64,000 bases of DNA. Origin: Gemmatimonadota bacterium. GTDB taxonomy: Bacteria > Gemmatimonadota > Gemmatimonadetes > Gemmatimonadales > GWC2-71-9. The notes under the pieces are model-generated. The model had not been told where the DNA came from, did not search any database, and saw nothing but the letters and a program-made list of their open reading frames with translations. Location of the stretch: positions 41,834 to 105,833 of the forward strand of contig JBDHAB010000019.1 of NCBI GenBank assembly GCA_039588295.1, written 5' to 3'. The first letter of the stretch is position 1. Every line of letters begins with the position of its first letter. The position numbers and the translations under genes are program-made. This document shows positions 34,367-55,279 of this stretch, one piece after another.

Positions 34367-35062
34367 ATGGATTTTGCGGTGCTTCCTGACAACCTCCGCC
34401 GGGTGCGAGATACCATTGCGCGTACGCAAGCGAAGGAAGGACTCACCGCGGAGGTGCGCATCGTCGCCGTGACAAAGGGCCATCACCCGGCGGCTGCGCG
34501 GGCGGCCGTGGCCGCCGGCCTCGCCGACCTGGGAGAGAACCGCGTGCAGGAGGCGATCACCAAGATCGATGGATTGGCCAGCCTGGAGGCGCGGTGGCAT
34601 CTGATTGGCCACCTGCAGACGAACAAGGCGAAGTACGTTCCGGAGCGCTTTGCGATGGTCCACTCGGTAGATAGCGCGCGAGTGGCTCGGGCGCTGCACG
34701 GCGCGATGGAGCAGCGGGCACCATCCGATCGGTTGCCCGTGCTGCTGCAAGTCAACATGGCAGGAGAATCCCAGAAGAGCGGGTGTGAACCCGACGAGGC
34801 ACAGGACGTGGCGCGCGCCGTCACGAGCTTCTCGCGACTCGAGCTCAAGGGCCTCATGACCATGGCGCCACTGACGGATGACCAGGTGGTCCAGCGGCAG
34901 GTCTTCGGCGATTTGCGTCGGTTGCGCGATCATCTCGAGCTGGTGGGATTCTCGCTGCCGGAGCTTTCAATGGGAATGTCCGGGGATTATGAGGCAGCCG
35001 TCGCCGAGGGCGCGACGATCTTGCGTTTGGGTACTGTGCTGTTTGGAGAACGGCCGACATGA
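34367..35062 (+). CDS. yggS: PLP homeostasis protein YggS
   Basis: VAVTK, GENRVQE, WHLIGHLQTNK, LMTM, LSMGMSGD, RLGT. Confidence 0.95.
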   Translation: MDFAVLPDNLRRVRDTIARTQAKEGLTAEVRIVAVTKGHHPAAARAAVAAGLADLGENRVQEAITKIDGLASLEARWHLIGHLQTNKAKYVPERFAMVHSVDSARVARALHGAMEQRAPSDRLPVLLQVNMAGESQKSGCEPDEAQDVARAVTSFSRLELKGLMTMAPLTDDQVVQRQVFGDLRRLRDHLELVGFSLPELSMGMSGDYEAAVAEGATILRLGTVLFGERPT

Positions 35063-35547
35063 ACGACAACGAATTCCGACTCACGCCGGCGGATGTACGA
35101 ACGCAGGAGTTTCGGCGCGTCCCGCTCGGGTACGAAGTGGCAGGCGTCGAGGAATTTCGCGGGCGGATGGCGGACGAACTGGAACGACTCCTGCGCGAAC
35201 GTGCGGCGCTGGAAGAACGGCTGCACAGTTTCCGTGAGCAGCTCAAAGCGTTCCGCGAGCGGGAAAAGGCGCTCAACGACGCCGTCGTGATGGCCCATCA
35301 GGTACGGACCGACATCGAGCAATCGGCAAAGCGCGAGTCCGAGTTGGCAATGCGGGAGGCACGGGCCAAGGCCGATGACATTCTCAATGGCGCCCGGAAG
35401 GCCGAGACTTTCGTGCGGCACGATCTTGAGGAGGCGCAGCGCCAGTTCAGTGCGTACCTCGCGGCGTTCCGTCGACTGCTCGAGCGGCAGCTCGCCCAGG
35501 TCGACGCCCTCGCCGACCAGGAGCGAGACGGGAGCCCGCCCGAGTGA
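35059..35547 (+). CDS. divIVA: DivIVA domain protein
   Basis: LTPADVRTQEFRRVPLGYEVAGVEEF N-terminal motif followed by a long coiled coil. Confidence 0.88.
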   Translation: MNDNEFRLTPADVRTQEFRRVPLGYEVAGVEEFRGRMADELERLLRERAALEERLHSFREQLKAFREREKALNDAVVMAHQVRTDIEQSAKRESELAMREARAKADDILNGARKAETFVRHDLEEAQRQFSAYLAAFRRLLERQLAQVDALADQERDGSPPE

Positions 35548-41474: not shown

Positions 41475-41648
41475 GCGCCGAGCGGGTCGGCACGACCGAT
41501 ACCGACTGGCACCGTGATGCGCGGGAATGGAACCGCTCCTTGTCCCCTTCCAGCCAGCCTTATCGACGAATATCCGTGAGCAGCGTGTGGTGAGAGCCAA
41601 CAGGCGGTGGTGCGGATGCGTCAGTCTGAGCGACTGGAGCGAGACCGC

Positions 41649-44324
41649 GTGACGGGTGCTCCACCGCTTGAGCGTGACCGGGCCATTCTTCGGGCCCTCG
41701 CCGGGCGGATCGATCCTAGTGATGCCGGTGCGCAGAACAACCTCGGCGTGCTCTACTACCGTCGCGGACTCATCGAAGAGGCGGTCCGGCAATTCCGCGA
41801 GGCATTGGAGCTCGATCCGCGGCTGCACACCGCTCGGCGGAACCTCGAGATCGCGTACACGGAGACGGGCTACTACGATCACCGGATCGCGGAACTCAGC
41901 GAGCAGCTCCGCGCGAATCCGCAAAACGATGAAGCCCAGTGGGAGCTTGGGCGAATCTACGCGTCCATGCGGCACTTCGATTCGGCGATCGATGCGTTTC
42001 AGACCATCGTCCTCCGCGCGCCGGAACGGACGGAGGTCCTCGTGGAGTTGGGTCTGGCCGAGCGCGGTCGCGGGCGCCTGGAGCCGGCGCTGGAATGGCT
42101 GGAGCGCGCGCGGACCATCGATCCACACGATGCCACCGTGCTACAGCACCTGGGTACGGTGCTGCATGAGCACGGTGCCGACACCGAAGCGTTCTCGGCG
42201 CTGACCCGCGCCACCCAGCTCGCCCCGGACAACGCGGAAGCGCATTATCAGCTCGCGTTCGTGCTTGGCACCCTTGGCCGGCACGACGAGGCAAGAAGCG
42301 CCACGAAACTCGCCATGCAGTTGAGTCCGTCCTTGGGCCGCCCGCACGCCACGCTATCGCTCACCTCCACGCCACATGACGGCGTTCCTCCACCAGCCGC
42401 CGCGCCGGGCCAGCAACCGACGGCGGCGCTCGCGCACTACAACCTCGGACTCGTGTTCCGCCGGCAGGGCCGGTACACCGAGGCGCTACGCGAGTTTCGC
42501 CTCGCATTGGAGGCAGGGGACGATCGCCGTCTCGTGCTGCCGGCCGTGGCCGAGCTCCATTTGCTCCGGCGGGACCACGATGCCGCGATCGAGGCGTACG
42601 ATCATTTGGTGGAAGACATGGCTGACACGCCCAAGGTCTGGAACGAGCGAGGCGTCGTGCTGCACCTGCTGGGGCGATTCGATGAGGCGCTTGCCTCGTT
42701 CGAGCGTGCGATTTCGTTGGATGCCGATTATGCGCTCGCGCTCAACAACCTTGCGATCACCGCGGCGTACGGTGGCGAGCCGGCGAAGGCGATGACGGCT
42801 CTGCGCGATGCGATTCGGCGAGCGCCGGCGGTGACGCTCCCGCACACGAACCTGGGGATGCTCCTCTTCAAAGTCGGACAGCTCCAGGTGGCCATGGACG
42901 CGTTTCAGCGGGCGGCGGACTTGGATCCGACGGATGCGGCGGCGTGGAACGGCATCGGATTGGTGTTGACGGAGCTTGGGCGCGATCGGGATGCACGGCG
43001 CGCCTTCGCACGGGCCGTGGACGCCGATCCCGACTCCGCCGAACCGCACTACAACTTGAGCTTTGCACTCTCCCGTCTCGGGGAGTTCGACGAGGCATTG
43101 CGTGAGGTGACCCGCGCACAAACCCTGGATCCGTATTACATGCCCGGCAAGTTCCGTCTCGGGATCGACGCGGTCTACGAGCATCGGTCTACCGCGGTGG
43201 CGCCAGAAATCTCGGCGGATGTCGCGTCCGGATTGGGTGGACGCGGGTTTGCGTTTGAGGCGGAGTTGTTCGACGACGTGTTTGCCCAGCTGGATCAGGA
43301 GCCCGACGAGCCAGCAGCCGCCGGTGACGAGTCGGACCGGTACGCGGCGGCGCGCGCGCACCTGGATCGCGGCGAGGTCGATCGTGCGATCGAGGAGGCC
43401 CAGCGGGTGCTGCAGGCCGGCGGTGAGCCAGTGGCCGGTAACGCGCTGCTCGGCATGCTGTTCGAGCGCCGGGAGTTGTACACGGAGGCGCTGGAACGGT
43501 ACCGCGCCGCCCGCGCCAAGGCGCCACAACGCGTCGACCTCCGACTCGGCGAGATTCGGCAGCTCCTGGCACTCGGACGCAGCACGGTCGCGCTCGGGGA
43601 GGCCGTTGCGTTGTCCGCTGCTCACCCGGATGAAGTCGAGGCGGCGGTGCTCGTCGCCCGCGCCCGGCTCGCGAGCGGCGACCCGGCGCGCGCGCGGGAG
43701 GTTCTGGCGGAGGCGATCCATCGCACTCCGCGGCGCACCGATCTGCTCGCGCTGGAGGCGGAGATCGCCCTGGCCCTGGGGGATCTTCATGTCGCCCGCG
43801 ACGCCTGCCAATCGGCGGTGGAGCTCGAACCGGGATTCGTGCACGCGTGGCTGATGCTCGGCACGGTCGCCGAAGAGGCCGAGGAATGGGATGACGCCGA
43901 GTCGGCCTATCGGTCGGCGCTGGAGGGAGACCCCGCGTTTGTGGCCGCAACCCTTGCGTTGGCCGACGTTCACCGTAAGCGTGGGGCCTCGGAGCGAGCT
44001 GTGAACCTCCTGGCCGACGTGCTGGCCGAGCATCCTTCGAACCTGGACGCGTTGGTCGGTCTCGGCCGCGCGTTGCTCGACGGCGGTCGCACGGAGCAGG
44101 CCCTGGAGGCCTTCGATCGGCTGCTGCAATACGATAGTGAGCACGTCGGGGCGCTGTTTCTGTCTGCGGTGGCGGACGCGCGCCTCCGGAGATTTCGGGA
44201 AGCCGTGGCGTGTTGGGAACGCGTGGTGGCGCTCGAACCGACGAGTCCATTGGCCGCACGAGCGAAGGATCTCGCGCGAACGGCCCTCGACCTCGACCGC
44301 TTGTTTCCGGTTGGAGAGCTGTAG
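41649..44324 (+). CDS. Large cytoplasmic multi-TPR protein
   Basis: Many TPR repeats (AQNNLGVLY, AHYNLG, VWNERG, AWNGIG) with an acidic linker; no signal peptide; start uncertain (41607/41616/41649). Confidence 0.88.
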   Translation: MTGAPPLERDRAILRALAGRIDPSDAGAQNNLGVLYYRRGLIEEAVRQFREALELDPRLHTARRNLEIAYTETGYYDHRIAELSEQLRANPQNDEAQWELGRIYASMRHFDSAIDAFQTIVLRAPERTEVLVELGLAERGRGRLEPALEWLERARTIDPHDATVLQHLGTVLHEHGADTEAFSALTRATQLAPDNAEAHYQLAFVLGTLGRHDEARSATKLAMQLSPSLGRPHATLSLTSTPHDGVPPPAAAPGQQPTAALAHYNLGLVFRRQGRYTEALREFRLALEAGDDRRLVLPAVAELHLLRRDHDAAIEAYDHLVEDMADTPKVWNERGVVLHLLGRFDEALASFERAISLDADYALALNNLAITAAYGGEPAKAMTALRDAIRRAPAVTLPHTNLGMLLFKVGQLQVAMDAFQRAADLDPTDAAAWNGIGLVLTELGRDRDARRAFARAVDADPDSAEPHYNLSFALSRLGEFDEALREVTRAQTLDPYYMPGKFRLGIDAVYEHRSTAVAPEISADVASGLGGRGFAFEAELFDDVFAQLDQEPDEPAAAGDESDRYAAARAHLDRGEVDRAIEEAQRVLQAGGEPVAGNALLGMLFERRELYTEALERYRAARAKAPQRVDLRLGEIRQLLALGRSTVALGEAVALSAAHPDEVEAAVLVARARLASGDPARAREVLAEAIHRTPRRTDLLALEAEIALALGDLHVARDACQSAVELEPGFVHAWLMLGTVAEEAEEWDDAESAYRSALEGDPAFVAATLALADVHRKRGASERAVNLLADVLAEHPSNLDALVGLGRALLDGGRTEQALEAFDRLLQYDSEHVGALFLSAVADARLRRFREAVACWERVVALEPTSPLAARAKDLARTALDLDRLFPVGEL

Positions 44325-45485
44325 ATGGCAATCGAAGGTCCGCTGAGAGAACTCGGGATTCACGACGTGTTCCAATTGCTCGATCTCAGTCGAAAGACGG
44401 GCGTGTTGACGATTACCTCCCGCGTCCGCCAGAACCGAGGGGTCGTGTACTTCGAGCACGGTGCAGTGGTGCACGCCGGCATTCAGGCGAATCCCCATCC
44501 GCTGGGTGGGGTGCTCCTTCGCGCGGGTAAGATCGCCGAGGCGGATCTCCACCGAGCGCGAGCCATGCAGCAACGTGGCGATACCCGTCGCTTGGGGGAG
44601 ATCTTGGTGGCGATCGGTGCGCTGGCGCGACGGGAAGTGGAGCGTCAGGTGCGGCTCCAGATCGAAGAGGTCGTCTTCGAGGTGATGAGCTGGCGCGAGG
44701 GCTATTTCTCGTTTATCGAGGGTCCCTTGGACGGTATCCCGGCCGAGGCAACGGTGCGCATCCCAACCGGTTCGCTCCTGCTGGAGGCCGCGCGGAGAAT
44801 CGACGAATGGTCACGGATCGAGTCGCACATCCCGCGGTTGACCTTGGTGCCGCACCTCGCCGAACTCGAGGGCGAGGGCGGCTGGCTGGACCTCCTACCC
44901 GCGGAATGGGAGGTGCTTGCCGCCATTGACGGCCAACGCGATCTTCGCGCCATCGGGCGGACGCTGCGCAAATCCGAATTCGACGTGGCGAGAACGGTGT
45001 TCGGACTCGAGAGCGCCGGAGTGGTCGCGCTCAAGGAAGAGGGTATGCCGATCGCTGAGGGGGGAGAGAACCGTGGGGATCTGCAGGAGCTGCTCGACCG
45101 AGTCGAGGACGCTTTGGCCCGCGGGGATGCGCAGGACGCCGTGCGGTTAGCCGAAGCGGCGCGTGGGCGCTTCCGTGATGAACCCGGCGTCGCATTCATC
45201 TCAGGACGGGCCAGTCTGGTGGGTGGCCGGATCGCGGAGGCCGAGGAGGCGTTTCGCCATGCGCTCCGACTCGACCCCTTGATGCTCCCCGCCCACCGAT
45301 TCCTCGGCGATGCCCTGGCGAAGCAAGGCAAGATCGCCGAAGCCGTCGAGTGGTGGGAGCGATGGCTCACGCTGCGTGGACACGGGAATGATGTGGAGGC
45401 GGACGACGACGAGACTGCAGCCGTGCGCAGCGCGCTTCAGGCAGCGCACACTCTCGCTACCTTCCTGCAGGTACCACATGAATGA
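44325..45485 (+). CDS. DUF4388 (PATAN-like) + MshEN-like + TPR protein
   Basis: MAIEGPLRELGIHDVFQLL..KTGVL..YFEHG; RLGEILV; WREGYFSF; LLLEAARRIDEW; C-terminal TPRs. Confidence 0.85.
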   Translation: MAIEGPLRELGIHDVFQLLDLSRKTGVLTITSRVRQNRGVVYFEHGAVVHAGIQANPHPLGGVLLRAGKIAEADLHRARAMQQRGDTRRLGEILVAIGALARREVERQVRLQIEEVVFEVMSWREGYFSFIEGPLDGIPAEATVRIPTGSLLLEAARRIDEWSRIESHIPRLTLVPHLAELEGEGGWLDLLPAEWEVLAAIDGQRDLRAIGRTLRKSEFDVARTVFGLESAGVVALKEEGMPIAEGGENRGDLQELLDRVEDALARGDAQDAVRLAEAARGRFRDEPGVAFISGRASLVGGRIAEAEEAFRHALRLDPLMLPAHRFLGDALAKQGKIAEAVEWWERWLTLRGHGNDVEADDDETAAVRSALQAAHTLATFLQVPHE

Positions 45486-46272
45486 CGAGATCGCGGCCCT
45501 CACGGACGCGCTGACCCGGGATCCGGGCAGCCTGGCATTTCTTGAGCTGGGGGAGATGTTGCGCCGACGGGGCGAGTTCGAGGCAGCCGTCGGGGTGTCG
45601 CTCTCCGGTCTCGAGCATCACCCGGATCTGCTCGAGGCGCACGATCTGTACGCGCGCATCCTGGCGGACGTGGGAGATGTGGACCGTGCCTGGGAGGTGT
45701 GGGAGGGGATCTTGGCGCGTGAGCCGCGGCACGTGGGCGCCCTCAAGGGTCTTGGGTTCCTGTCCTTTGGAGCGGGCGATCTGGATTCGGCCCTCGATCG
45801 CTTGGAGCTCGCGCTGGCCGCCGATCCGACGGACCCGACGGTGGTTCAGGCGCTCATGACGGCGCGTGCGGCAGCCGAAGGCGGCGTGCCCGTCGGCTCG
45901 CCTGAGCTGGCGGATCCGGTGTTTGCGGGGCTCGATGGTGCCGAGCAGGGAATCCTGCTCGTGGACGAACGGGGGCAGGTGTTGGGCGGTGGCGTGGCGG
46001 ATGAGCGTGGCGAGGACGTGTCGGAGAAATCCGCGGCTTTTCTGGCGGGCGCGGCGCGTGAAGCCGAACGTACGGCACGCCTGCTGGACATGGGCTATTG
46101 GCGCTGGGTCGCAGCCGAATCGTCGGGAGGCAACGTGCATCTCAGCGCCCCGGCGGAGGGAAGCCTGCTGATGATCGTGCGCGATCGCAGCGTGCCATCC
46201 GGTCGGCTCGCGATGCTCGCCGCACGTGCGGCGGAGGCCGCGCGAACCTGGCTCTGGGAGCAGCAGTTGTGA
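45478..46272 (+). CDS. TPR + roadblock/LC7 domain protein
   Basis: N-terminal TPRs; C-terminal GILLVDERGQVL..AAFLAG..LLMIV roadblock pattern. Confidence 0.78.
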   Translation: MNDEIAALTDALTRDPGSLAFLELGEMLRRRGEFEAAVGVSLSGLEHHPDLLEAHDLYARILADVGDVDRAWEVWEGILAREPRHVGALKGLGFLSFGAGDLDSALDRLELALAADPTDPTVVQALMTARAAAEGGVPVGSPELADPVFAGLDGAEQGILLVDERGQVLGGGVADERGEDVSEKSAAFLAGAAREAERTARLLDMGYWRWVAAESSGGNVHLSAPAEGSLLMIVRDRSVPSGRLAMLAARAAEAARTWLWEQQL

Positions 46273-46619
46273 ACCCGCGGTTCCAACAGGCACTTGACGG
46301 GATCACCCGGGTCGGAGGGGTTCGGGGGGCGATGCTGGTGACGGCCGACGACGGGCTGGTGATTGCCGACACCGTGATGGAAGGAGTGCGGGGGAACGCG
46401 GTAGCGGCACTGGCCGCGAGCTTGATGAAGCGGTTTCGCCGGGTGTCGGCGGCCGCGTCAGTTGGGGCGCCCCACTTTCTACACTTGCAGGCAGACAATG
46501 GGACCCTGGTCGTTGTGCCCGCGCCGAACGACGTGCTCGTGGTGACGATCGGCAGCCCGGAGCTGAACGTCGGACTGACACGACTGGTAATGATGCGGGC
46601 AGCCGAGGTGATGACGTGA
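46269..46619 (+). CDS. Roadblock/LC7 domain protein (MglB/MglC-like paralog)
   Basis: GVRGAMLVTADDGLVIA..AALAASL..LVVT..NVGL; GTGA overlap with the upstream gene. Confidence 0.85.
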   Translation: MNPRFQQALDGITRVGGVRGAMLVTADDGLVIADTVMEGVRGNAVAALAASLMKRFRRVSAAASVGAPHFLHLQADNGTLVVVPAPNDVLVVTIGSPELNVGLTRLVMMRAAEVMT

Positions 46620-47086
46620 AGACGACGCGGGCTGTCGAGTCGTGGACGCTGCAGCCGTTAGAGCGGTTCATTTACGATACGGGGGCGCGCCTGACGCTGA
46701 TCATGACCCCGGCTGGGCAGGTACTGGCCCAACATGGCTTCACGCGGGCCGTCGACGTGATGGCGGCTGCGGCACTGGGGGCGGCCATCTTCTCGTCCAC
46801 GGGCGAGATTGCAAAGATGCTGCGGGAGGGCGGATTTTCGTCGTTGAATCATCAAGGGCGACGGCATGGGGTCTTCCTCGGTGGATTTGAGACCCGCCGA
46901 GGCCGGCTGCTCGCGCTCGTGGTGTACGGCCCCGACTCGTCGCTCGGTCTGGTCCAGTTGTTCTTCGAGGAGCTGGTGGAGCGTCTAGCGCTCGCGTCGC
47001 CGATGCAGGACGATCGACGTCCCATCCTCGCAGCCGACTTCGAACGCGAGCTGAATGAGAGCCTCTCTAGCCTGTTTGGACGGTGA
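46616..47086 (+). CDS. mglB: MglB-type GTPase-activating roadblock protein
   Basis: Roadblock fold with AGQVLAQHG, AALGAA, HQG, SSLGLV and C-terminal helix LNESLSSLFG; immediately upstream of mglA. Confidence 0.82.
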   Translation: MKTTRAVESWTLQPLERFIYDTGARLTLIMTPAGQVLAQHGFTRAVDVMAAAALGAAIFSSTGEIAKMLREGGFSSLNHQGRRHGVFLGGFETRRGRLLALVVYGPDSSLGLVQLFFEELVERLALASPMQDDRRPILAADFERELNESLSSLFGR

Positions 47087-47089
47087 GCG

Positions 47090-47689
47090 TTGTCACTAGT
47101 CAACTTCACGAACCGTGAGATCACCTGCAAGATCGTCTACTACGGGCCGGGCCGCTCGGGAAAGACGACGAATCTGCAGTACATTTACGGTCGCGTGCCC
47201 GACGGCCGCCGAGGCAGAATGGTATCGCTCGCGACGGAGACCGAGCGTACGCTGTTCTTCGATTTCCTCCCGCTCGAGCTCGGAAGCATCTCGGGGTTCA
47301 CGACGCGGTTTCACCTCTATACAGTGCCGGGACAGGTGTACTACAACTCGACCCGCAAGCTGGTGCTGCAGGGCGCCGACGGCGTCGTGTTCGTGGCTGA
47401 CAGTCAGGCCCGGCAGCTCGATGACAACATCGACAGCTTGCAGAACCTCCAGGCCAACCTGATCGAGTTGGATATCGAGGTGCGCTCGTTGCCGCTCGTG
47501 TTTCAATACAACAAGCAAGACCTGCCCGAGGATCTCATCCTGACGCACACGGAGCTGGATGACGCGGTCAACTTCTGGGGCGTCCCGAGCTTCACGTCAG
47601 ACGCGTTGCGTGGGGTTGGAGTGTTCGAAACCTTGAAGGCCGTATCCGAGATGGTCCTGCGCAGATTGAGCCGGGAGGCTCCCGAGTGA
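47090..47689 (+). CDS. mglA: MglA small Ras-like GTPase
   Basis: KIVYYGPGRSGKTTNL, ERTLFFDFLP, YTVPGQVYY, GADGVVFVADSQ, NKQDL; TTG start. Confidence 0.95.
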   Translation: MSLVNFTNREITCKIVYYGPGRSGKTTNLQYIYGRVPDGRRGRMVSLATETERTLFFDFLPLELGSISGFTTRFHLYTVPGQVYYNSTRKLVLQGADGVVFVADSQARQLDDNIDSLQNLQANLIELDIEVRSLPLVFQYNKQDLPEDLILTHTELDDAVNFWGVPSFTSDALRGVGVFETLKAVSEMVLRRLSREAPE

Positions 47690-49638
47690 ACGAAGAACTC
47701 AACCCGCGGTTCACGTTCGACGCCTTCGTGGTCGGCGCCGCCAATCGGCTCGCGGTGACCGCTACCCGAACCGTCGCCGAGTCGCCGGGGACGGCGTACA
47801 ACCCGCTCTTCATCTACGGTGAGAGCGGCTTGGGCAAGACGCACCTGCTCATGGCCATTGGCCACTTGTCCAAAGAGCTCGCACCGGGCCTGGACGTGGA
47901 GTATGTGACGCTGGACGAGTTTGTGGAGCTCTATCAAGCGGCGGTTGGCGCGGGGCAGAGCGAGGCTCTGCGGGGGCGGCTCGGCCGGATCGACGTGCTT
48001 CTCGTCGATGACGTGCATTTCCTCACGCACCGCCGCGAGATGCAGGCTGAACTGCTGCGGGTCGTGGAGCAGCTGCAGGGCGGAAACCGTCAGGTCGTGC
48101 TGACCAGCGATCGTCCCCCAGCAGAGATCCAGGAACTCGACACCAGGCTGTTGACCCGGTTCGACGGCGGTTTGGTGGTGGACATCGACACCCCCGACTA
48201 CGAGACCCGCCTTGCGATCCTCAAGCGTCGAGCGGCCGACCGCGGAGCACAATTCGCTTCAGGGGTGCTCGACGTGGTGGCCCAGGTCGAGGTCAACAAC
48301 GTCCGCGAGCTGTTGGGTCTCCTGAACCGCCTCGTGGCGTACCAGGCCGTCAGTGAGACCCCACTCACACCGGATGCCGCCCATCAACTGCTTTCGGGTG
48401 AGGTGCCGCAGCGTCCCAGCGTCACCGGCGTGCCCGACGCAGCCGTTCGAGCGGCAGACGAATTCGCAGAGTTCCTCTCTGGTATCAGCCACACCGTCCA
48501 GGAGCAGATCGACGCGTGGCGCACGCGGGTAGGCGACGGCATCAAACGGTGGGGGAGTGAGGGGTACCGTACGGCGCGACTGGAACAGCTCCTGAAGCAA
48601 GATGTGCCCACGGGGGTCGATCGCGTGATCAAGGCCTATGAACAGGATGTCGACCACTTGAAGGCCTTCCAGCGTGCGATGGCGCGGGTCGACCCCCACC
48701 GGGTGAGTGATCCAGTATTCTACGACCCCGATCGACTGGAGGAGGCCGACGCGCTCGTGCAGGCGGCGCTGCGCGAAGGTCGCCCGCCGCCGGGTCCTTC
48801 CTCCGCCTGGACCATGGAAACGCTCGTCGTGGGAGAGGCGAACAAGTTCGCGTTGAACGCGGCGAATGGTGTGATCGCGGCGCCGGGCGTGAGTTATAAC
48901 CCGATGGTGGTCGTGGGACCGCCCGGCGTTGGGAAGACCCATCTGCTGCACGCGATGGGCAACGCGCTTGCTGAGGATCCCGAGGCCCGCGTGGCGTGCC
49001 TGTCGGCCCAGCAGTTCGTCGACGAGCTCCTCGATGCGATCGATGGGGACCGTGTGGAATCGTGGCGGAAGCGCTATCGGTCCGCCACTGCGTTGCTGCT
49101 GGACGATGTGCATCTCCTCGCAGGCAAGGAGCGGTCGCAGGAGGAGTTGTTTCACCTCTACAATTCGTTCATCCAGGGCGAGCAGCAGCTCATGTTCACG
49201 TTGATACTGCCCCCCAAGGATGTGGAGGGTTTCGACGCGCGACTGGTGTCTCGGTTGGAAGGTGGCCTGCTGGCACAACTGGCTGCCCCCGATCGGGAGT
49301 TGCGGCGTGAGATTGCCCTGCGGAAGCTCGGAGGGAAATTCGGCGATGTGGAGGTACCGTTGGTGGACTATCTGGCGGATCGTCCGGCGGATTCGATCCG
49401 TGAGGTCCTCAATGTCGTTCAGCGCATCGTGCGAGCAGCGCAGGCGCAGGGGGCTGAGCCAACGGCCGCCTTCGCCAAGGCGTTGCTGGAAGGGGCGAGG
49501 CCCTCGGCGGCCCGAACGGCCGGAGCCGTTCGAACAAGCGGGATCATGATCTCGCCGATCGGGAGCATCCGCAGCCGGGAGAAGGTAGTGTGGGATTGGC
49601 CCGAGCCGGCGGACCGGGTCATTGAGGAGCTGGTGTGA
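47686..49638 (+). CDS. Tandem double DnaA/Hda-type AAA+ ATPase lacking the DNA-binding domain
   Basis: Two DnaA domain-III modules (YNPLFIYGESGLGKTHLL/VDDVHF/TRF and YNPMVVVGPPGVGKTHLL/LDDVHL/SRL); no domain I/II or domain IV. Confidence 0.88.
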   Translation: MNEELNPRFTFDAFVVGAANRLAVTATRTVAESPGTAYNPLFIYGESGLGKTHLLMAIGHLSKELAPGLDVEYVTLDEFVELYQAAVGAGQSEALRGRLGRIDVLLVDDVHFLTHRREMQAELLRVVEQLQGGNRQVVLTSDRPPAEIQELDTRLLTRFDGGLVVDIDTPDYETRLAILKRRAADRGAQFASGVLDVVAQVEVNNVRELLGLLNRLVAYQAVSETPLTPDAAHQLLSGEVPQRPSVTGVPDAAVRAADEFAEFLSGISHTVQEQIDAWRTRVGDGIKRWGSEGYRTARLEQLLKQDVPTGVDRVIKAYEQDVDHLKAFQRAMARVDPHRVSDPVFYDPDRLEEADALVQAALREGRPPPGPSSAWTMETLVVGEANKFALNAANGVIAAPGVSYNPMVVVGPPGVGKTHLLHAMGNALAEDPEARVACLSAQQFVDELLDAIDGDRVESWRKRYRSATALLLDDVHLLAGKERSQEELFHLYNSFIQGEQQLMFTLILPPKDVEGFDARLVSRLEGGLLAQLAAPDRELRREIALRKLGGKFGDVEVPLVDYLADRPADSIREVLNVVQRIVRAAQAQGAEPTAAFAKALLEGARPSAARTAGAVRTSGIMISPIGSIRSREKVVWDWPEPADRVIEELV

Positions 49639-51257
49639 TGGCCATCAAGGGCAGTCTGAAGGAAGCCTCGCTCGCCGACGTGCTCCAGCTGCTCTCGCTG
49701 GGCCAGAAGACCGGATGTCTCACAGTCACGGATCGCACCAACCTGGGCTACATCTACTTTGAGAAGGGGAGGATCATCTATGCGTCGATCGTGAATCGGC
49801 GCGATCGCCTCGGCGATATCCTGCTCAAGGGTGGGCGGATCACCGGCGAACAGCTCGAGTCCGGTATCGAACGGCAGTCCCAGCAGCGAGACCTGCGACT
49901 GGGGGAGATCCTCGTGACGCAGGGCTCGATCTCGCGTGACGATCTTGAGCACTACATGCGCGTGCAGATCGAGGAAGCCGTGTATTTCCTCTTCACGTGG
50001 ACGCGAGGGAACTTCACCTTCGAGGCCGACCTGCAGCCGGAAGAGCAGGACTTTGTGGTGAACATCAACCCCGAGACCCTGCTGCTGGAAGGGGCGCGTC
50101 GCGTCGATGAATGGGGCCTGATTCGGAAGAAGATCCCGTCCATGGACTACATCTTCACCGTGGAGCAAGGCCGAATCGACGGCTCCGACGTCCAGCTCAC
50201 TCGGGAACAGGAACGGATCGTTCCGCTTCTGGACGGATCCAGAGACGTGACGACGCTGGTTGATGACTCCGGTCTCGTCGAATTCGAGGTCGGCAAGGCG
50301 TTGTATGGCTTGATCACCGCAGGATTTGCGCACCGTACGGGTCGCAGCGAGACTCCGCGCCCCGTCGTGGCCGGAGACGCTCGAGCCAACGAACACAACA
50401 ATCTGGGCATCGCCTTCTACAAGACGGACATGCTGGATGAGGCGACTCGGGAGTTTCAGAAGGTCGTGGAACTGCGGCCAGCTGACGGGGATGCCTACTT
50501 CTACCTGGGCCTGATCGCCCTGAAGCAATCGCACTGGGAGGCAGCGGCCGCCTACTTCAATCAGGCGGTCGACAACGCCGGTCCGCGGGCGGCCGTGCTG
50601 GCCAATATGGCGTTCAGCTATGAAAAGGCAGGTCGCTTCGAGGAGGCAGACGACATCTATGCAGAGGCAGCGGCCCTCGCACCCAACGACCCGCGCATCC
50701 TCACGGGCTGGGGTATCGGCGCGCTCCACCGGGGTGATTTCGCGGTGGCGGCCGGCCGGTTGGACCGAGCACGCGAAGTCTCAGAGGATCGGGCGCTCGC
50801 TCCCCTGTGGTACTGGGCGCGGTCCCTGACCGCGGCGACGCTCGACCAGCTGGATGAAGCGGTGCGCCTGCTGCGCCAGGGGCTCGAGGCGTTTCCCGAC
50901 AATGTCGTGCTCCTGAACAATTTGGCCGTCGCGCTGGAATTGACGGGGGACGTGGATGAGGCGGGCGAGGCATTGCGGGCGTCATTGGCGGAAGAGCAGT
51001 CGGTCCCGCAGGTGTCTAAGAACCTCGGAGACCTGCTCTACCGCGCCGCACGGTATGACGATGCGTGGGAGGCCTATCAACGAGCGGTGCGGCTGCAACC
51101 GACGTTAGGTGACGACATCTACTTCAAGCTCGGCAACATCGCGTATAAGCGCCAGGATCGGGAACTCGCCACCGAGTACTGGAATCGCGCGTTGGAGCTG
51201 AACCCCGATCACGAACTGGCGCGGACCAATCTCGAGACGGTGAGCGCCCTGTCATGA
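49638..51257 (+). CDS. DUF4388 (PATAN-like) + tandem MshEN + TPR protein
   Basis: MAIKGSLKEASLADVLQLL; RLGDILL..RLGEILV; LLLEGARRVDEW; multiple C-terminal TPRs. Confidence 0.87.
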   Translation: MAIKGSLKEASLADVLQLLSLGQKTGCLTVTDRTNLGYIYFEKGRIIYASIVNRRDRLGDILLKGGRITGEQLESGIERQSQQRDLRLGEILVTQGSISRDDLEHYMRVQIEEAVYFLFTWTRGNFTFEADLQPEEQDFVVNINPETLLLEGARRVDEWGLIRKKIPSMDYIFTVEQGRIDGSDVQLTREQERIVPLLDGSRDVTTLVDDSGLVEFEVGKALYGLITAGFAHRTGRSETPRPVVAGDARANEHNNLGIAFYKTDMLDEATREFQKVVELRPADGDAYFYLGLIALKQSHWEAAAAYFNQAVDNAGPRAAVLANMAFSYEKAGRFEEADDIYAEAAALAPNDPRILTGWGIGALHRGDFAVAAGRLDRAREVSEDRALAPLWYWARSLTAATLDQLDEAVRLLRQGLEAFPDNVVLLNNLAVALELTGDVDEAGEALRASLAEEQSVPQVSKNLGDLLYRAARYDDAWEAYQRAVRLQPTLGDDIYFKLGNIAYKRQDRELATEYWNRALELNPDHELARTNLETVSALS

Positions 51258-51291
51258 CGCGGACGCGGCATGCGGGCCGCGGAGTGTGCTG

Positions 51292-52164
51292 GTGACGGAA
51301 TCCTTTACGGAATCCTTTCTCGACCTGGTTCGAGAGCGTTATGCCCGCGTGTTGGAGCGCCTCGAAACTGTGCGCACGCCCCAAGAGCGCGATCAGGTGA
51401 AGCGCGACATCATCGCGCTGTTCAAGACCGTCGATCAGTCCATCACCGATTTGTCGAAGCTGAAGGAAGACATCCGCGTTCTGGTGGATCGCTACAAGGA
51501 GCTGTCGCAGGACGAGCAAGAGGGCCAGGCGCCGCAATTCAGCGGGAGCGCTCCGGTGCTCCACGCCGATCACATTGGGGCCTCGACCTTCATCGAGAAG
51601 GGGTGGAGCCTCATCTCACTGGGTGATTACCCCGGCGCGATCCACGCGTTGGGAAAGGCACTTTCGTTGGCACCAGGGGACTTACAGGCTGAATCGATGC
51701 TGGGCTGGGCGCAGATGCTCAATGAGGAGTATGACTCGGCGCTGGGCACTTTCCAGGAAGTGCTCACCAAACAGCCGACGAACTCCCTCGCGCAGATCAA
51801 CGTCGGATACATCTGTCTCAAGAAACGCCTGTTTGCAGAGGCCATCGAGCACCTGTCGAAGGCAATCCGGTTGGACAATGACAAGAAGGCCACGCTCTAC
51901 GCGCACTACTATCTCGGACTCGTCTATTTCGCGCGTGAGATGTTTGCGGAAGCGCAGAGCTTCTTCGAGAAGACGCTGAAGATTGGACCGAACCTGATCG
52001 AAGCGTACTATGAACTGGGTCGTACTCAGTGGTTCGCGGGCGATCGAGAGGCGGCGAAGCATACCTGGGAACGGGGCTATCAGGCCAACAAGTTCAACCC
52101 GTGGGGCAAACGCTGCATGCAGACGCTCGATCTGGTCGCTCGAGGCCAGGAGCCCCCACGCTAG
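51292..52164 (+). CDS. Coiled-coil + TPR protein
   Basis: N-terminal coiled coil then about 5 TPRs; GGAG RBS before the GTG. Confidence 0.85.
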   Translation: MTESFTESFLDLVRERYARVLERLETVRTPQERDQVKRDIIALFKTVDQSITDLSKLKEDIRVLVDRYKELSQDEQEGQAPQFSGSAPVLHADHIGASTFIEKGWSLISLGDYPGAIHALGKALSLAPGDLQAESMLGWAQMLNEEYDSALGTFQEVLTKQPTNSLAQINVGYICLKKRLFAEAIEHLSKAIRLDNDKKATLYAHYYLGLVYFAREMFAEAQSFFEKTLKIGPNLIEAYYELGRTQWFAGDREAAKHTWERGYQANKFNPWGKRCMQTLDLVARGQEPPR

Positions 52165-53024
52165 TTCCACTCCTGCTCTTGTTGGCTCAGACCGGCGAGC
52201 CCAGCGTGGTGCAGGTGGGGCGTGTCAACGTCATCTATTGGGCGGGATCGGGGGCCACCGCCGTCGCCCTCGGCGAGTTCGCCGATCGTGCGGGACCCTG
52301 GCCCGGCATTCCCGATCCGCCGCGGCGTCCCATACGGCTGATTCTCGCGCCCGATGCCCGGCGCTTCGATTCGCTGACGGCTGGGCGCATTCCGGAGTGG
52401 GGCCAGGCCGCGTCATTTCCGGCCTCCAATACGATCGTGCTCACGCTCTCGCGGGATCATCGTCGAGTGCTCCGCCACGAGCTGGCGCATCTGGCGCTCC
52501 ACAGCGTGGTGCAACGCGTGCCGCGGTGGTTCGACGAAGGCTATGCGGCCCGTGCTGCGGGGGAATGGGATCGGTTGGAGGCCCTCCGCGTGAACTGGGC
52601 GCTGCTGCGCGGAGCCGCCCCGTCCCTGGCGGCCCTGGATCGGTATATCCGCTCGGGCACGGCGGCGGAGGCTGAGGCGTCCTACGCGCTGGCGACCACT
52701 GCGGTGCTGCTGCTGGAGCGGATGGGTGGAGAGCGGCGGCTCGAACCACTGCTGGCGAGGCTGCGCGGCACGTCCGACTTCGATCTCGCACTGCGGGCCA
52801 CGCACCAGATCACGCTGGGGCAGTTCGAAGAGTCGTGGCGCAAGGATCTGCGCACGCGCTATGGCTGGTTGCTGCTGGTCACGTCTCTGACCGTGTTTTG
52901 GGCGTTCGTCGCGCTCATCCTCACGGCACTCTGGGCCCGCCGACGCCAACGCGACCCCGAGCGCCGCCGGGCGCTCGACGAGGGGTGGGTTGTCCCGGAA
53001 GATCAATGGAACCCGGATGCTTGA
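52101..53024 (+). CDS. Peptidase MA / gluzincin-like protein with C-terminal TM anchor
   Basis: HELAH and WFDEG motifs; hydrophobic N-terminal segment and C-terminal TM; start uncertain. Confidence 0.72.
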   Translation: MGQTLHADARSGRSRPGAPTLVPLLLLLAQTGEPSVVQVGRVNVIYWAGSGATAVALGEFADRAGPWPGIPDPPRRPIRLILAPDARRFDSLTAGRIPEWGQAASFPASNTIVLTLSRDHRRVLRHELAHLALHSVVQRVPRWFDEGYAARAAGEWDRLEALRVNWALLRGAAPSLAALDRYIRSGTAAEAEASYALATTAVLLLERMGGERRLEPLLARLRGTSDFDLALRATHQITLGQFEESWRKDLRTRYGWLLLVTSLTVFWAFVALILTALWARRRQRDPERRRALDEGWVVPEDQWNPDA

Positions 53025-53057: not shown

Positions 53058-53243
53058 ATGAAGAATAGGACCGAGTCACCAGCGCGTCTTCGGTTTCGGC
53101 GCCGCAACATGGTGCTGCTGGGAGCGGCCATCGGGGCGCTCGCAGTAGGGTATGTGCTGCTTGCGCGGGGTTCGACGGTGGCAGCCCCTGTGCTCTTGGT
53201 CCTGGGCTACTGTGTGTTGTTCCCATTGGGACTGGCGCTGTGA
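53058..53243 (+). CDS. Small 2-TM membrane protein (DUF3098-like)
   Basis: F.RRN.VLLG...GYVLL..GS...APVLLVLGY pattern. Confidence 0.7.
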   Translation: MKNRTESPARLRFRRRNMVLLGAAIGALAVGYVLLARGSTVAAPVLLVLGYCVLFPLGLAL

Positions 53244-53256
53244 GCGGCGGTCTCGC

Positions 53257-53330
53257 GGGCGAATAGCTCAGGGGTTCAGAGCGCCTGCCTTACAAGCAGG
53301 AAGTCGGGGGTTCAAATCCCTCTTCGCCCA
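53257..53330 (+). tRNA. tRNA-Val(TAC)
   Basis: Acceptor GGGCGAA/TTCGCCC; anticodon arm CCTGC-cttacaa-GCAGG; T loop GGTTCAAATCC; CCA not encoded. Confidence 0.96.
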
Positions 53331-55158: not shown

Positions 55159-55176
55159 GCGTCGCTGCTGTGGATT

Positions 55177-55250
55177 GGGGCTGTAGCTCAGCTGGTTAGA
55201 GTGCCGGTCTGTCACACCGGAGGCCGCGGGTTCAAATCCCGTCAGCCCCG
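55177..55250 (+). tRNA. tRNA-Asp(GTC)
   Basis: Acceptor GGGGCTG/CAGCCCC; anticodon arm CCGGT-ctgtcac-ACCGG; T loop GGTTCAAATCC; CCA not encoded. Confidence 0.96.
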
Positions 55251-55279
55251 TTCGGCTCATGATCGCTCGACACAACTTC

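Follow-up and report, generated by a model that had tools for sequence, protein, structure and literature searches.

The ten co-oriented genes at positions 41649–53024 of the DNA analysed here, a stretch of 64,000 nucleotides (the window) from a Gemmatimonadota bacterium (assembly GCA_039588295.1, contig JBDHAB010000019.1), are almost certainly the surviving core of a larger chemosensory operon, apparently of the F1 type. The genes, numbered 1 to 10 (table 1), combine a switch built on the GTPase MglA with tetratricopeptide repeat (TPR) proteins, two PATAN (DUF4388) proteins and a double DnaA-type ATPase. A preliminary description of the window had taken them for a self-contained switch; in the relatives, however, che genes flank and interrupt the block, and this genus has lost them. 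The operon is real, conserved and uncharacterised, and the double ATPase (gene 7) is an apparently undescribed component.

Loss of the chemosensory half

Two groups of che genes are interleaved with the block in the relatives. The first, cheW-cheY-cheA-cheC, lies between rluD and gene 1, with cheA and cheC in 42 of 43 loci. The second codes for CheR, CheD, CheB and two CheW proteins within about 3.2 kb between genes 8 and 9, and che genes are present in 51 of the 54 loci that span this interval; the three loci without them group with the window. CheW and receptor (MCP) domains are found in 32 of 32 other relatives and in none of the nine genomes of this genus, and the CheB methylesterase is likewise absent (0/9). 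A CheA query on the genome of the window (G000, 96% complete) returned one weak match to the HATPase kinase domain only. At the start of one contig of this genome, which has no receptors, there is an orphan match to a CheR-like methyltransferase (33% identity; G000:C53:13-630).

In a quick tree of gene 8, as all trees of this analysis are, computed with 69 of 74 proteins after five were dropped by length, the five rows without che genes form one clade (Shimodaira–Hasegawa-like approximate likelihood ratio support 100), inside a clade with the che-bearing loci L016 and L018 (99). Since the clade without che genes is nested among che-bearing loci, loss of these genes is the simple reading. The ratio of non-synonymous to synonymous substitution rates (dN/dS) of the ten genes is 0.07–0.26 in three pairs without che genes, comparable with 0.15–0.22 for rluD; dS in these pairs is 1.0–2.0, so the values are rough, and they indicate that the ten genes are under purifying selection after the loss. 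Residues lost specifically after che loss, as would mark a docking site for CheY, show no clear excess over control clades (in gene 1, 30 of 189, against 9–25 in the controls). Because the chemoreceptors are gone yet the output half is maintained, the job of the latter would need no kinase, and the genus amounts to a natural deletion experiment.

By Pfam, the operon of the relatives codes for CheC, CheD and a CheA with a P2 domain. Nine of the 13 receptors examined end 165–171 residues past the tip motif and the other four at 178–211; for comparison, the Thermotoga maritima receptor 2CH7, a 44H receptor, ends about 164 residues past it. The receptors examined are encoded elsewhere, mostly with long N-terminal regions; in the loci read, neither the interval from rluD to gene 1 nor that from gene 8 to gene 9 contains a receptor gene. 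CheC, CheD and 44H receptors are features of the F1 chemosensory class (PMC10746217). The relatives' pathway would thus be F1-like, an assignment made from gene content and receptor length.

Only 7 of the 32 che-bearing relatives have a flagellin over the cut-off, so the pathway would mostly serve something other than flagella. Flagellar chemotaxis was ruled out for this genome, in which no rod or FlhA family was found; a flagellin gene on a 3.5-kb contig (G000:C114:11-1462) is possibly mis-binned, the genus having no other flagellin. The CheY of the operon (L112:5312-5674 and orthologues) is 75–90% identical across orders (one reduced locus has 64%), yet flagellin is missing from the majority of its genomes. 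Several relatives (e.g. L131, G016:C17) carry a chemoreceptor gene 7–10 kb from the true dnaA; the matching region of this genome (L012) has no receptor, and the proximity may be plain synteny.

Conservation of the block in relatives

Eighty public loci were fetched in all, and each count of gene order uses the loci with enough flank. All titled relatives belong to Gemmatimonadota, except one titled only 'bacterium'. The order mglA–gene 7–gene 8 is kept in 73 of 73 loci, genes 3–8 are in order in 60 of 64, genes 1–8 in 44 of 50, and gene 9 is followed by gene 10 in 43 of 53. Among the six loci that fail for genes 1–8, three (L074, L078, L080) are truly without roadblocks, and the other three look like detection or assembly problems. 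The synteny search that the preliminary description proposed thus confirms that the ten genes are real and that their order is conserved across the class Gemmatimonadetes.

There are also reduced variants. In L127 and L129, which have neither che genes nor this mglA, genes 7, 8 and 10 stand alone. The mglA gene occurs without gene 7 in L121, L122, L162 and L163, the last consisting of mglA and gene 8, and che genes occur with gene 8 but without genes 1–7 in L164 and L165. Roadblocks are missing from L128 as well as from the three loci named above. Gene 8 is the sole gene kept in every variant seen, which is partly owing to how the loci were found.

The double DnaA-type ATPase

Gene 7 was described in the preliminary account as a repurposed initiator-clade AAA+ ATPase, and this holds: it has two DnaA domain III modules, N and C, separated by a helical middle domain, and no domain I or IV. 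In its structural model (predicted local distance difference test score, pLDDT, 88), module N lies on domain III of Bacillus subtilis DnaA at 1.4 Å, and a Foldseek search with the full model returned AAA+ proteins only. The Walker A and B motifs, the arginine finger and sensor II are conserved in both modules, and sensor I is weaker in module C. In module N, K51 and D108 are kept in 64 of 64 sequences, D142 in 62, R158 in 57 and R207 in 59; in module C, D473 is kept in 60 of 60, R523 in 59, K417 in 58 and R572 in 53.

No Pfam match to DnaA domain I or domain IV was found in gene 7, nothing in it aligns to domain IV of the genome's own DnaA, and the true dnaA-dnaN pair is elsewhere, on contig C1. 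Gene 7 nevertheless passes the cut-off of the DnaA family TIGR00362 (464 against 344, in two matched stretches), so that its automatic naming as DnaA, common in annotation pipelines, is misleading. It differs from Hda, which has a single module and a degenerate Walker A, in its two modules, its intact GKT and its score for TIGR03420 (167, cut-off 195), and comparison by eye with Escherichia coli Hda found no N-terminal clamp-binding motif of the Hda type. On these features of its sequence, gene 7 is neither DnaA nor Hda. The two modules form separate clades (support 99 and 100). Their identity to DnaA is 40% for N and 36% for C, and that between the two modules is 34%, against 77% for DnaAs among themselves, as measured on 27 of the 64 aligned proteins. 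The positions at which DnaA contacts single-stranded DNA were tried as a further test and were uninformative, since the true DnaAs of these genomes vary at one of them.

A wide fold search with the middle domain gave generic helical bundles (best Z 5.9), neither a match nor evidence of a new fold, and the ESM Atlas gave no usable match. With a single-protein query, the domain is found in 134 of 201 genomes of the phylum (a tally that includes the unpublished G176): 124 of 137 further genomes within its order, 12 of 44 from the remaining orders of the class, and none of 19 from other classes. A profile search gave 437 clusters at E 0.001, among them long repetitive proteins that are likely false matches. 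Among the best 150 of the 437, the taxon names are Gemmatimonadota, the one exception being a partial protein labelled 'Acidimicrobiales' from a contig of 1.3 kb; as most matches carry no taxon name, confinement to the class is not proven. Gene 7 as a whole is missing from seven loci and was not found in most of families f6 and f7.

A single-module form of gene 7 with 392 amino acids occurs in other orders (L087–L089, L091, L092, L126, L169; positions ~9995–11176 in L087). In this form the middle domain runs straight into the conserved tail, so that module C was either inserted or cleanly lost. The middle domain is also fused to another N-terminal region in L142:4363-6363 (G037), P0097 and P0117. 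This region weakly resembles the C-terminal domain of the iron-only hydrogenase large subunit (Pfam E ~3e-5 in two of the three), P0117 has a WDW tail resembling that of gene 7, and the fusions are possibly a second client of the gene 8 groove discussed below. A further candidate fusion, P0034, which links the middle domain to DUF4388, appears to be a frameshift artefact.

Predicted contact between genes 7 and 8

The C-terminal tail of gene 7 contains the invariant residues E632, K633, W636, W638 and P639, and it has low confidence in two monomer models. A tail that is invariant yet poorly predicted alone suggested folding on a partner, and because genes 7 and 8 are kept together in L127 and L129, gene 8 was modelled with residues 250–650 of gene 7. 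The complex scored 0.74, against 0.00 for the best of three controls. In the reference sets, 116 of 157 solved complexes reach this mark, and so do 2 of 215 mismatched pairs (rough counts, from our own alignments). The runs share at least 57% of contacts, with partner pLDDT of at least 74. In the predicted pose, residues 620–650 of gene 7 lie inside the TPR groove of gene 8. Conservation is higher in the 52 residues of the predicted interface than in the remaining 198 of the TPR region (0.69 against 0.60; permutation test 0.0067, uncorrected for burial or kinship).

The distribution of the genes points the same way. In seven of seven loci without gene 7, gene 8 has lost 44–69 of residues 455–535 (the last 81 TPR residues), and such truncation is seen in none of the 67 copies beside gene 7. 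Six of the seven have also cleanly lost the MshEN insert. From the model together with this co-loss, we consider it likely that the two proteins are in physical contact. Gene 7 appears to be tied to gene 8 and not to MglA, since the pair survives without mglA (L127, L129) and mglA occurs without gene 7 in four loci. The idea of the preliminary description that the parts work together is therefore supported for genes 7 and 8 and appears not to extend to a link between the ATPase and the GTPase.

The GTPase switch

Gene 6 is a Group 1-type MglA with intact G motifs and catalytic residues (E 1.6e-71 to Myxococcus xanthus MglA). The catalytic residue R53, T54, TVPGQ82 and NK are invariant in 60 of 60 sequences. 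The MglA variant Q82A is GTP-locked (PMC7519303). The invariant P-loop R22 (GPGRSGKT) and the Q of NKQD differ from Myxococcus MglA. A second mglBA pair follows dnaX-ybaB-recR on another contig (G000:C8:68937-70130; L011:8938-10131); its MglA, 52% identical to gene 6, keeps GPGL and NKRD as in M. xanthus. As this pair keeps the Myxococcus residues, gene 6 is a paralogue and not the orthologue of the Myxococcus-like mglBA. The MglA of the second pair has a 30-residue insertion after NKRD.

Gene 5 is probably the GTPase-activating protein (GAP), judging by its sequence profile, which matches MglB chains only, C-terminal helix included (E 1e-17 to M. xanthus MglB). It is 29% identical to the other MglB of the genome and far under the NCBIfam cut-off for Thermus MglB (31 against 200 bits). 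In Myxococcus, MglB needs a co-factor (PMC9481161). The profile of gene 4 matches generic roadblocks, with no MglC named among them. The C-terminal roadblock of gene 3, under the Pfam cut-off (20.1 against 23 bits), is likewise not assignable to MglC, and the profile of gene 1, which matches generic TPRs only, does not assign it to SgmX. Gene 1 is a candidate MglA effector or scaffold. At its residues ~490–550 (window 42.1–43.4 kb), between TPR blocks, there is a conserved non-TPR stretch (PYY...F.L.ID and F.FD..LLD.LF..L), possibly a docking helix. A further roadblock gene is found elsewhere in the genome (C40:46987-47247).

Cyclic di-GMP, pili and a proposed mechanism

The MshEN receptor for cyclic di-GMP (c-di-GMP) has two 24-residue RLG...Q motifs separated by a short spacer of 5 residues (PMC5013675). 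In gene 8, R58, G60, L63 and L74 of the first motif are present in 74 of 74 sequences and Q81 in 71, and R/K88, G90 and Q111 of the second motif are each present in 71 of 74. The score of gene 8 is over the NCBIfam cut-off (42 against 38 bits). That of gene 2 is under it (31 bits), and Pro takes the place of its first Arg in the window and in 34 of 63 sequences. On this motif, gene 8 is a probable c-di-GMP-binding scaffold; of the DUF4388 scaffolds for which the preliminary description proposed such binding, it is the one with a strong motif. In this genome, which also has nine GGDEF matches, the only matches to a strict MshEN pattern are two in gene 8 and one in PilB.

The type IVa pilus genes of the genome include PilM, PilB and three PilT-family ATPases. 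PilB (G000:C42:46451; L106:1078-2685) itself has an MshEN motif at its start, divergent in the second half, and a second PilB/GspE-like ATPase (C2:115986-117590) adjoins a receiver-domain match. In Synechocystis, PilB1 is bound by PATAN domains (10.1101/2021.06.11.447907), and in Myxococcus MglA-GTP and the TPR protein SgmX drive pilus formation (PMC7519303).

The best overall explanation is that the operon is the remnant of a chemosensory module that would steer type IVa pili; our confidence in it is middling. The ancestral Gemmatimonadetes operon almost certainly interleaved an F1-type pathway (CheW, CheY, CheA, CheC, CheR, CheD, CheB) with a second MglA/MglB switch, and in this genus, as the genomes show, the chemosensory half was deleted and the output half kept. 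Gene 8 would be the hub: it would sense c-di-GMP with the tandem MshEN motif and hold gene 7 by its C-terminal peptide in the TPR groove, as the model and the co-loss suggest. ATP-dependent self-assembly of the DnaA type, for which gene 7 has the catalytic residues, might cluster or release the hub. By analogy with Myxococcus, MglA would cycle between GTP and GDP with gene 5 as its GAP, genes 3 and 4 as co-factors and the TPR proteins as effectors. The PATAN domains, as in cyanobacterial PATAN proteins, would signal to the type IVa pilus motor where or when pili extend. In the relatives CheY-P would reset the module; in this genus the module would depend on c-di-GMP and nucleotide state alone. 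Type IVa pili are the most likely output, at about even odds.

Several observations weigh against this explanation or its parts. For the output, no pilus genes were found within the operon, and PilM is over the cut-off in 74 of 80 genomes of the phylum, many without the locus; as it is nearly universal, co-occurrence with a pilus locus gives no test. The more Myxococcus-like mglBA pair on contig C8 may do the pilus job. The MshEN spacer of gene 8 has 6 residues, not 5. The sensor-I Asp of module C of gene 7 is kept in 39 of 60 sequences and is Ile (I507) in the window. As for the contact, the seven truncated copies of gene 8 may represent one or two events (one clade, support 65), and distant copies beside gene 7 match 8–20 of 22 conserved interface residues, a range that overlaps the 8–14 of copies without it. 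TPR grooves bind peptides generically, such complexes are common among solved structures, and of the TPR proteins of the operon (genes 1, 2, 3, 8 and 9) gene 8 is the one that was modelled with the tail.

Alternative explanations

The operon might instead control attachment, exopolysaccharide or biofilm rather than the position of pili, a role like that of the Dif chemosensory system in Myxococcus, with c-di-GMP and MglA gating the choice between motile and sessile states. The MshEN motif of gene 8 suits this, and so does the gene order cheW-cheY-cheA-cheC of the relatives, which is the same as difC-D-E-G. Genes for CheC, CheD and CheA with P2, and 44H-like receptors, are features of Dif-like clusters as well as of the relatives (PMC2577667, PMC3945109). 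We nonetheless regard this explanation as unlikely. The operon has no DifA-type receptor, and the hallmark of Dif-like clusters, a 44H receptor with a tiny periplasmic domain encoded in the cluster, does not occur in the relatives' loci read, whose receptors lie elsewhere and mostly have the long N-terminal regions noted above; no polysaccharide gene is nearby; and MglA, the roadblocks and the ATPase are left unexplained.

A link to the cell cycle is quite unlikely. Here gene 7 would co-assemble with the true DnaA or inactivate it in the manner of Hda, through its arginine fingers, gene 8 would sequester gene 7 in response to c-di-GMP, and replication initiation or budding would be tied to the polarity state. 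Both modules do keep the residues aligned to E. coli DnaA K178, D235, R281, R285 and R334, module N fits domain III closely, module C retains the DnaA stretch GKERTQEELF, and the operon lies between divIVA-ileS-lspA-rluD and the division and cell wall (dcw) genes. Gene 7 is dispensable, however, as the loci, families and other classes without it show; its modules are old separate clades far less similar to DnaA than DnaAs are to each other; the clamp-binding motif was not seen; and the genomic position stays the same whichever genes remain. It is just as doubtful that gene 7, tethered by its tail to a receptor of c-di-GMP and under the control of a Ras-like GTPase (in the relatives also of the chemosensory kinase), joins or caps DnaA filaments; if true, replication initiation in Gemmatimonadetes would be coupled directly to cell polarity and to the sensing of surfaces.

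It is very improbable that there is no single system at all, and that the che pathway, genes 1–6 and genes 7–8 merely share an old slot and are co-transcribed. Almost every subset does occur, from genes 7, 8 and 10 alone (L127, L129) and mglA with gene 8 (L163) to che genes without genes 1–7 (L164, L165) and loci without roadblocks. Against this, loci of different orders retain both the interleaving and the overlapping junctions, no variant seen lacks gene 8 (with the reservation made above on how loci were found), and two PATAN paralogues stand one on each side of mglA. Least probable is that genes 1–9 originally served to place or assemble chemosensory arrays, in the way of ParC/ParP or PpfA, and now position other cargo: almost all relatives have che genes interleaved with the block, and an ATPase with TPR scaffolds would suit the role, but the nine genes are intact and constrained in a genus without arrays, show no clear extra loss of conserved residues over control clades, and are dispensed with (genes 1–7) in two loci that keep che genes.

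Relation to known systems

The pilus-steering explanation draws on the Myxococcus MglA/MglB module (with SgmX, RomY and MglC, under Frz), which resembles the operon in its Group 1-type MglA, adjacent MglB-like gene, extra roadblocks and TPR proteins, and also in a chemosensory input (in the relatives) and type IVa pili (in this genome). In Myxococcus mglA is not near the genes of its partners (PMC4316618), whereas the mglA of the window, with its R22 and NKQD, is a second paralogue inside one operon. The relatives' input is of F1 type (CheC, CheD), and the PATAN–MshEN hubs and DnaA-derived ATPase have no counterpart in Myxococcus. The operon may thus work like the Myxococcus chemosensory–MglA circuit, but it is not that module. 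Only for Myxococcus has the control of an MglA switch by a chemosensory system been worked out, and there the genes are dispersed. The present operon unites, throughout a bacterial class, the input, the switch, a sensor of c-di-GMP and an unstudied ATPase, and so identifies the partners.

With the F1 class, including Myxococcus Dif and Geobacter Dif-like systems, the relatives share CheA with P2, CheC, CheD, CheB, CheR, CheY and 44H-like receptor length. They differ in having no receptor in the operon, in being mostly without flagella and in the inserted Mgl/PATAN/ATPase block; in this genus the che genes were not found. Gene 7 shares the domain III fold and catalytic motifs of DnaA and Hda, twice over, and differs from them in its two modules, its lack of domains I and IV, and its lineage-specific helical domain with conserved tail, into which module C may have been inserted. 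The PATAN/DUF4388 domain and tandem RLG...Q motifs of gene 8 are shared with cyanobacterial PatA-type regulators and MshEN receptors, but gene 8 has no receiver domain, its MshEN motif lies inside PATAN and is fused to TPRs, and its spacer is one residue longer.

The preliminary description knew of no characterised system of this composition. None was found here either, although the neighbourhood of MglA, MglB and PATAN is in print: Wuichet and Sogaard-Andersen (2014; PMC4316618) report Group 1 mglA beside PATAN genes, and table S2 of that paper lists Gemmatimonas aurantiaca GAU_1409 as PATAN>MglA>-PATAN>. This is the order seen in L074, L078 and L080. Makarova (2006) is reportedly a further source for such neighbourhoods. 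In the parts of PMC4316618 available, the gene between MglA and PATAN is unnamed, the main text mentions neither DnaA nor chemotaxis, and che genes, MshEN and the TPR parts are not described. In the full-text literature, which leaves subscription papers mostly uncovered and in which supplements may list the genes, neither the full operon nor the tandem ATPase was found described; the accessible portions of PMC11580455, PMC12448109 and 10.64898/2026.05.11.724246 contain nothing on this locus. The theme of MglA, MglB, PATAN and chemosensory input is therefore already known. What is added here is the genus-wide loss of receptors with continued selection, and the tail–groove model with co-loss, which makes a small and directly testable prediction.

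Gene layout and genomic context

The ten open reading frames (ORFs), all on the forward strand, are present with the domains first described, as ORF calls and Pfam and NCBIfam scans confirm (table 1). With the chosen starts, the distances at the junctions of genes 1–9 are 0, −8, −4, −4, +3, −4, −4 and +28. The close packing that had been noted is confirmed at seven of the nine junctions, where the genes adjoin or overlap by no more than 8 bases. The eighth leaves a gap of 28 bases, and at the ninth the start of gene 10 is uncertain, there being no ATG, GTG or TTG at the stop of gene 9. A promoter and terminator scan gave counts at chance level (2 against 1.8 expected; 8 against 8.9 expected). 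No transmembrane segments were found in genes 1–9, and there is one near the C-terminus of gene 10. The putative zinc site of gene 10 (H105, E106, H109, E125) is kept in 47 of 47 sequences. No gene 10 was seen in 10 of 53 loci, of which one is masked by Ns, and the gene is probably a neighbour rather than a core part.

Table 1. Features of the operon, with positions in the window.
Feature	Position	Strand	Description
junction 1	41475..41648		174 bases in the window; in relatives cheW-cheY-cheA-cheC (~3.3 kb) between rluD and gene 1
gene 1	41649..44324	+	TPR protein, 891 aa
gene 2	44325..45485	+	DUF4388/PATAN, partly degenerate MshEN-like insert (44499-44660), TPRs, 386 aa
gene 3	45478..46272	+	TPR and weak roadblock domain, 264 aa
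gene 4	46269..46619	+	stand-alone roadblock/LC7 protein, 116 aa
gene 5	46616..47086	+	MglB-like roadblock with C-terminal helix, 156 aa
gene 6	47090..47689	+	MglA, second paralogue in the genome, 199 aa
gene 7	47686..49638	+	tandem DnaA-type AAA+ ATPase, two Bac_DnaA modules, 650 aa
gene 7 module N	~47698-48393	+	DnaA domain III-type
gene 7 middle domain	48448-48780	+	helical
gene 7 module C	~48799-49491	+	DnaA domain III-type
gene 7 C-terminal peptide	49543..49635	+	residues 620-650; predicted docking in the gene 8 TPR groove
gene 8	49635..51257	+	PATAN/DUF4388, tandem MshEN motif (49806-49967), TPR groove (50490-51239), 540 aa
junction 2	51258..51285		28 bases in the window; in relatives cheR-cheD-cheB-cheW-cheW (~3.2 kb)
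gene 9	51286..52164	+	helical N-terminal region and highly conserved TPRs, 292 aa
gene 10	52158..53024	+	HExxH+E zinc peptidase-like, C-terminal transmembrane helix; start uncertain

The operon does lie between divIVA and the dcw genes, as first described, but neither is adjacent. Five housekeeping genes separate the operon from divIVA (35059-35547), 6 kb upstream, and rsmH-ftsL-ftsI begin more than 2 kb downstream, beyond a small ORF, two tRNA genes and one for a TPR protein. In the locus comparison both flanks stay whichever subset of the module remains, so that the position is inherited synteny and does not point to division; the preliminary description had seen in it a hint of a link to polar growth or division. 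The small ORF (53058-53243) codes for 61 amino acids with two membrane helices, and the tRNA-Val and tRNA-Asp genes (53257-53330, 55176-55251) flank the TPR gene. No mraZ was seen before rsmH-ftsL-ftsI, and the N-terminus of rsmH looks short in this assembly. In one relative (G027), two tandem lspA-like genes lie upstream of rluD (L115:3604-4624).

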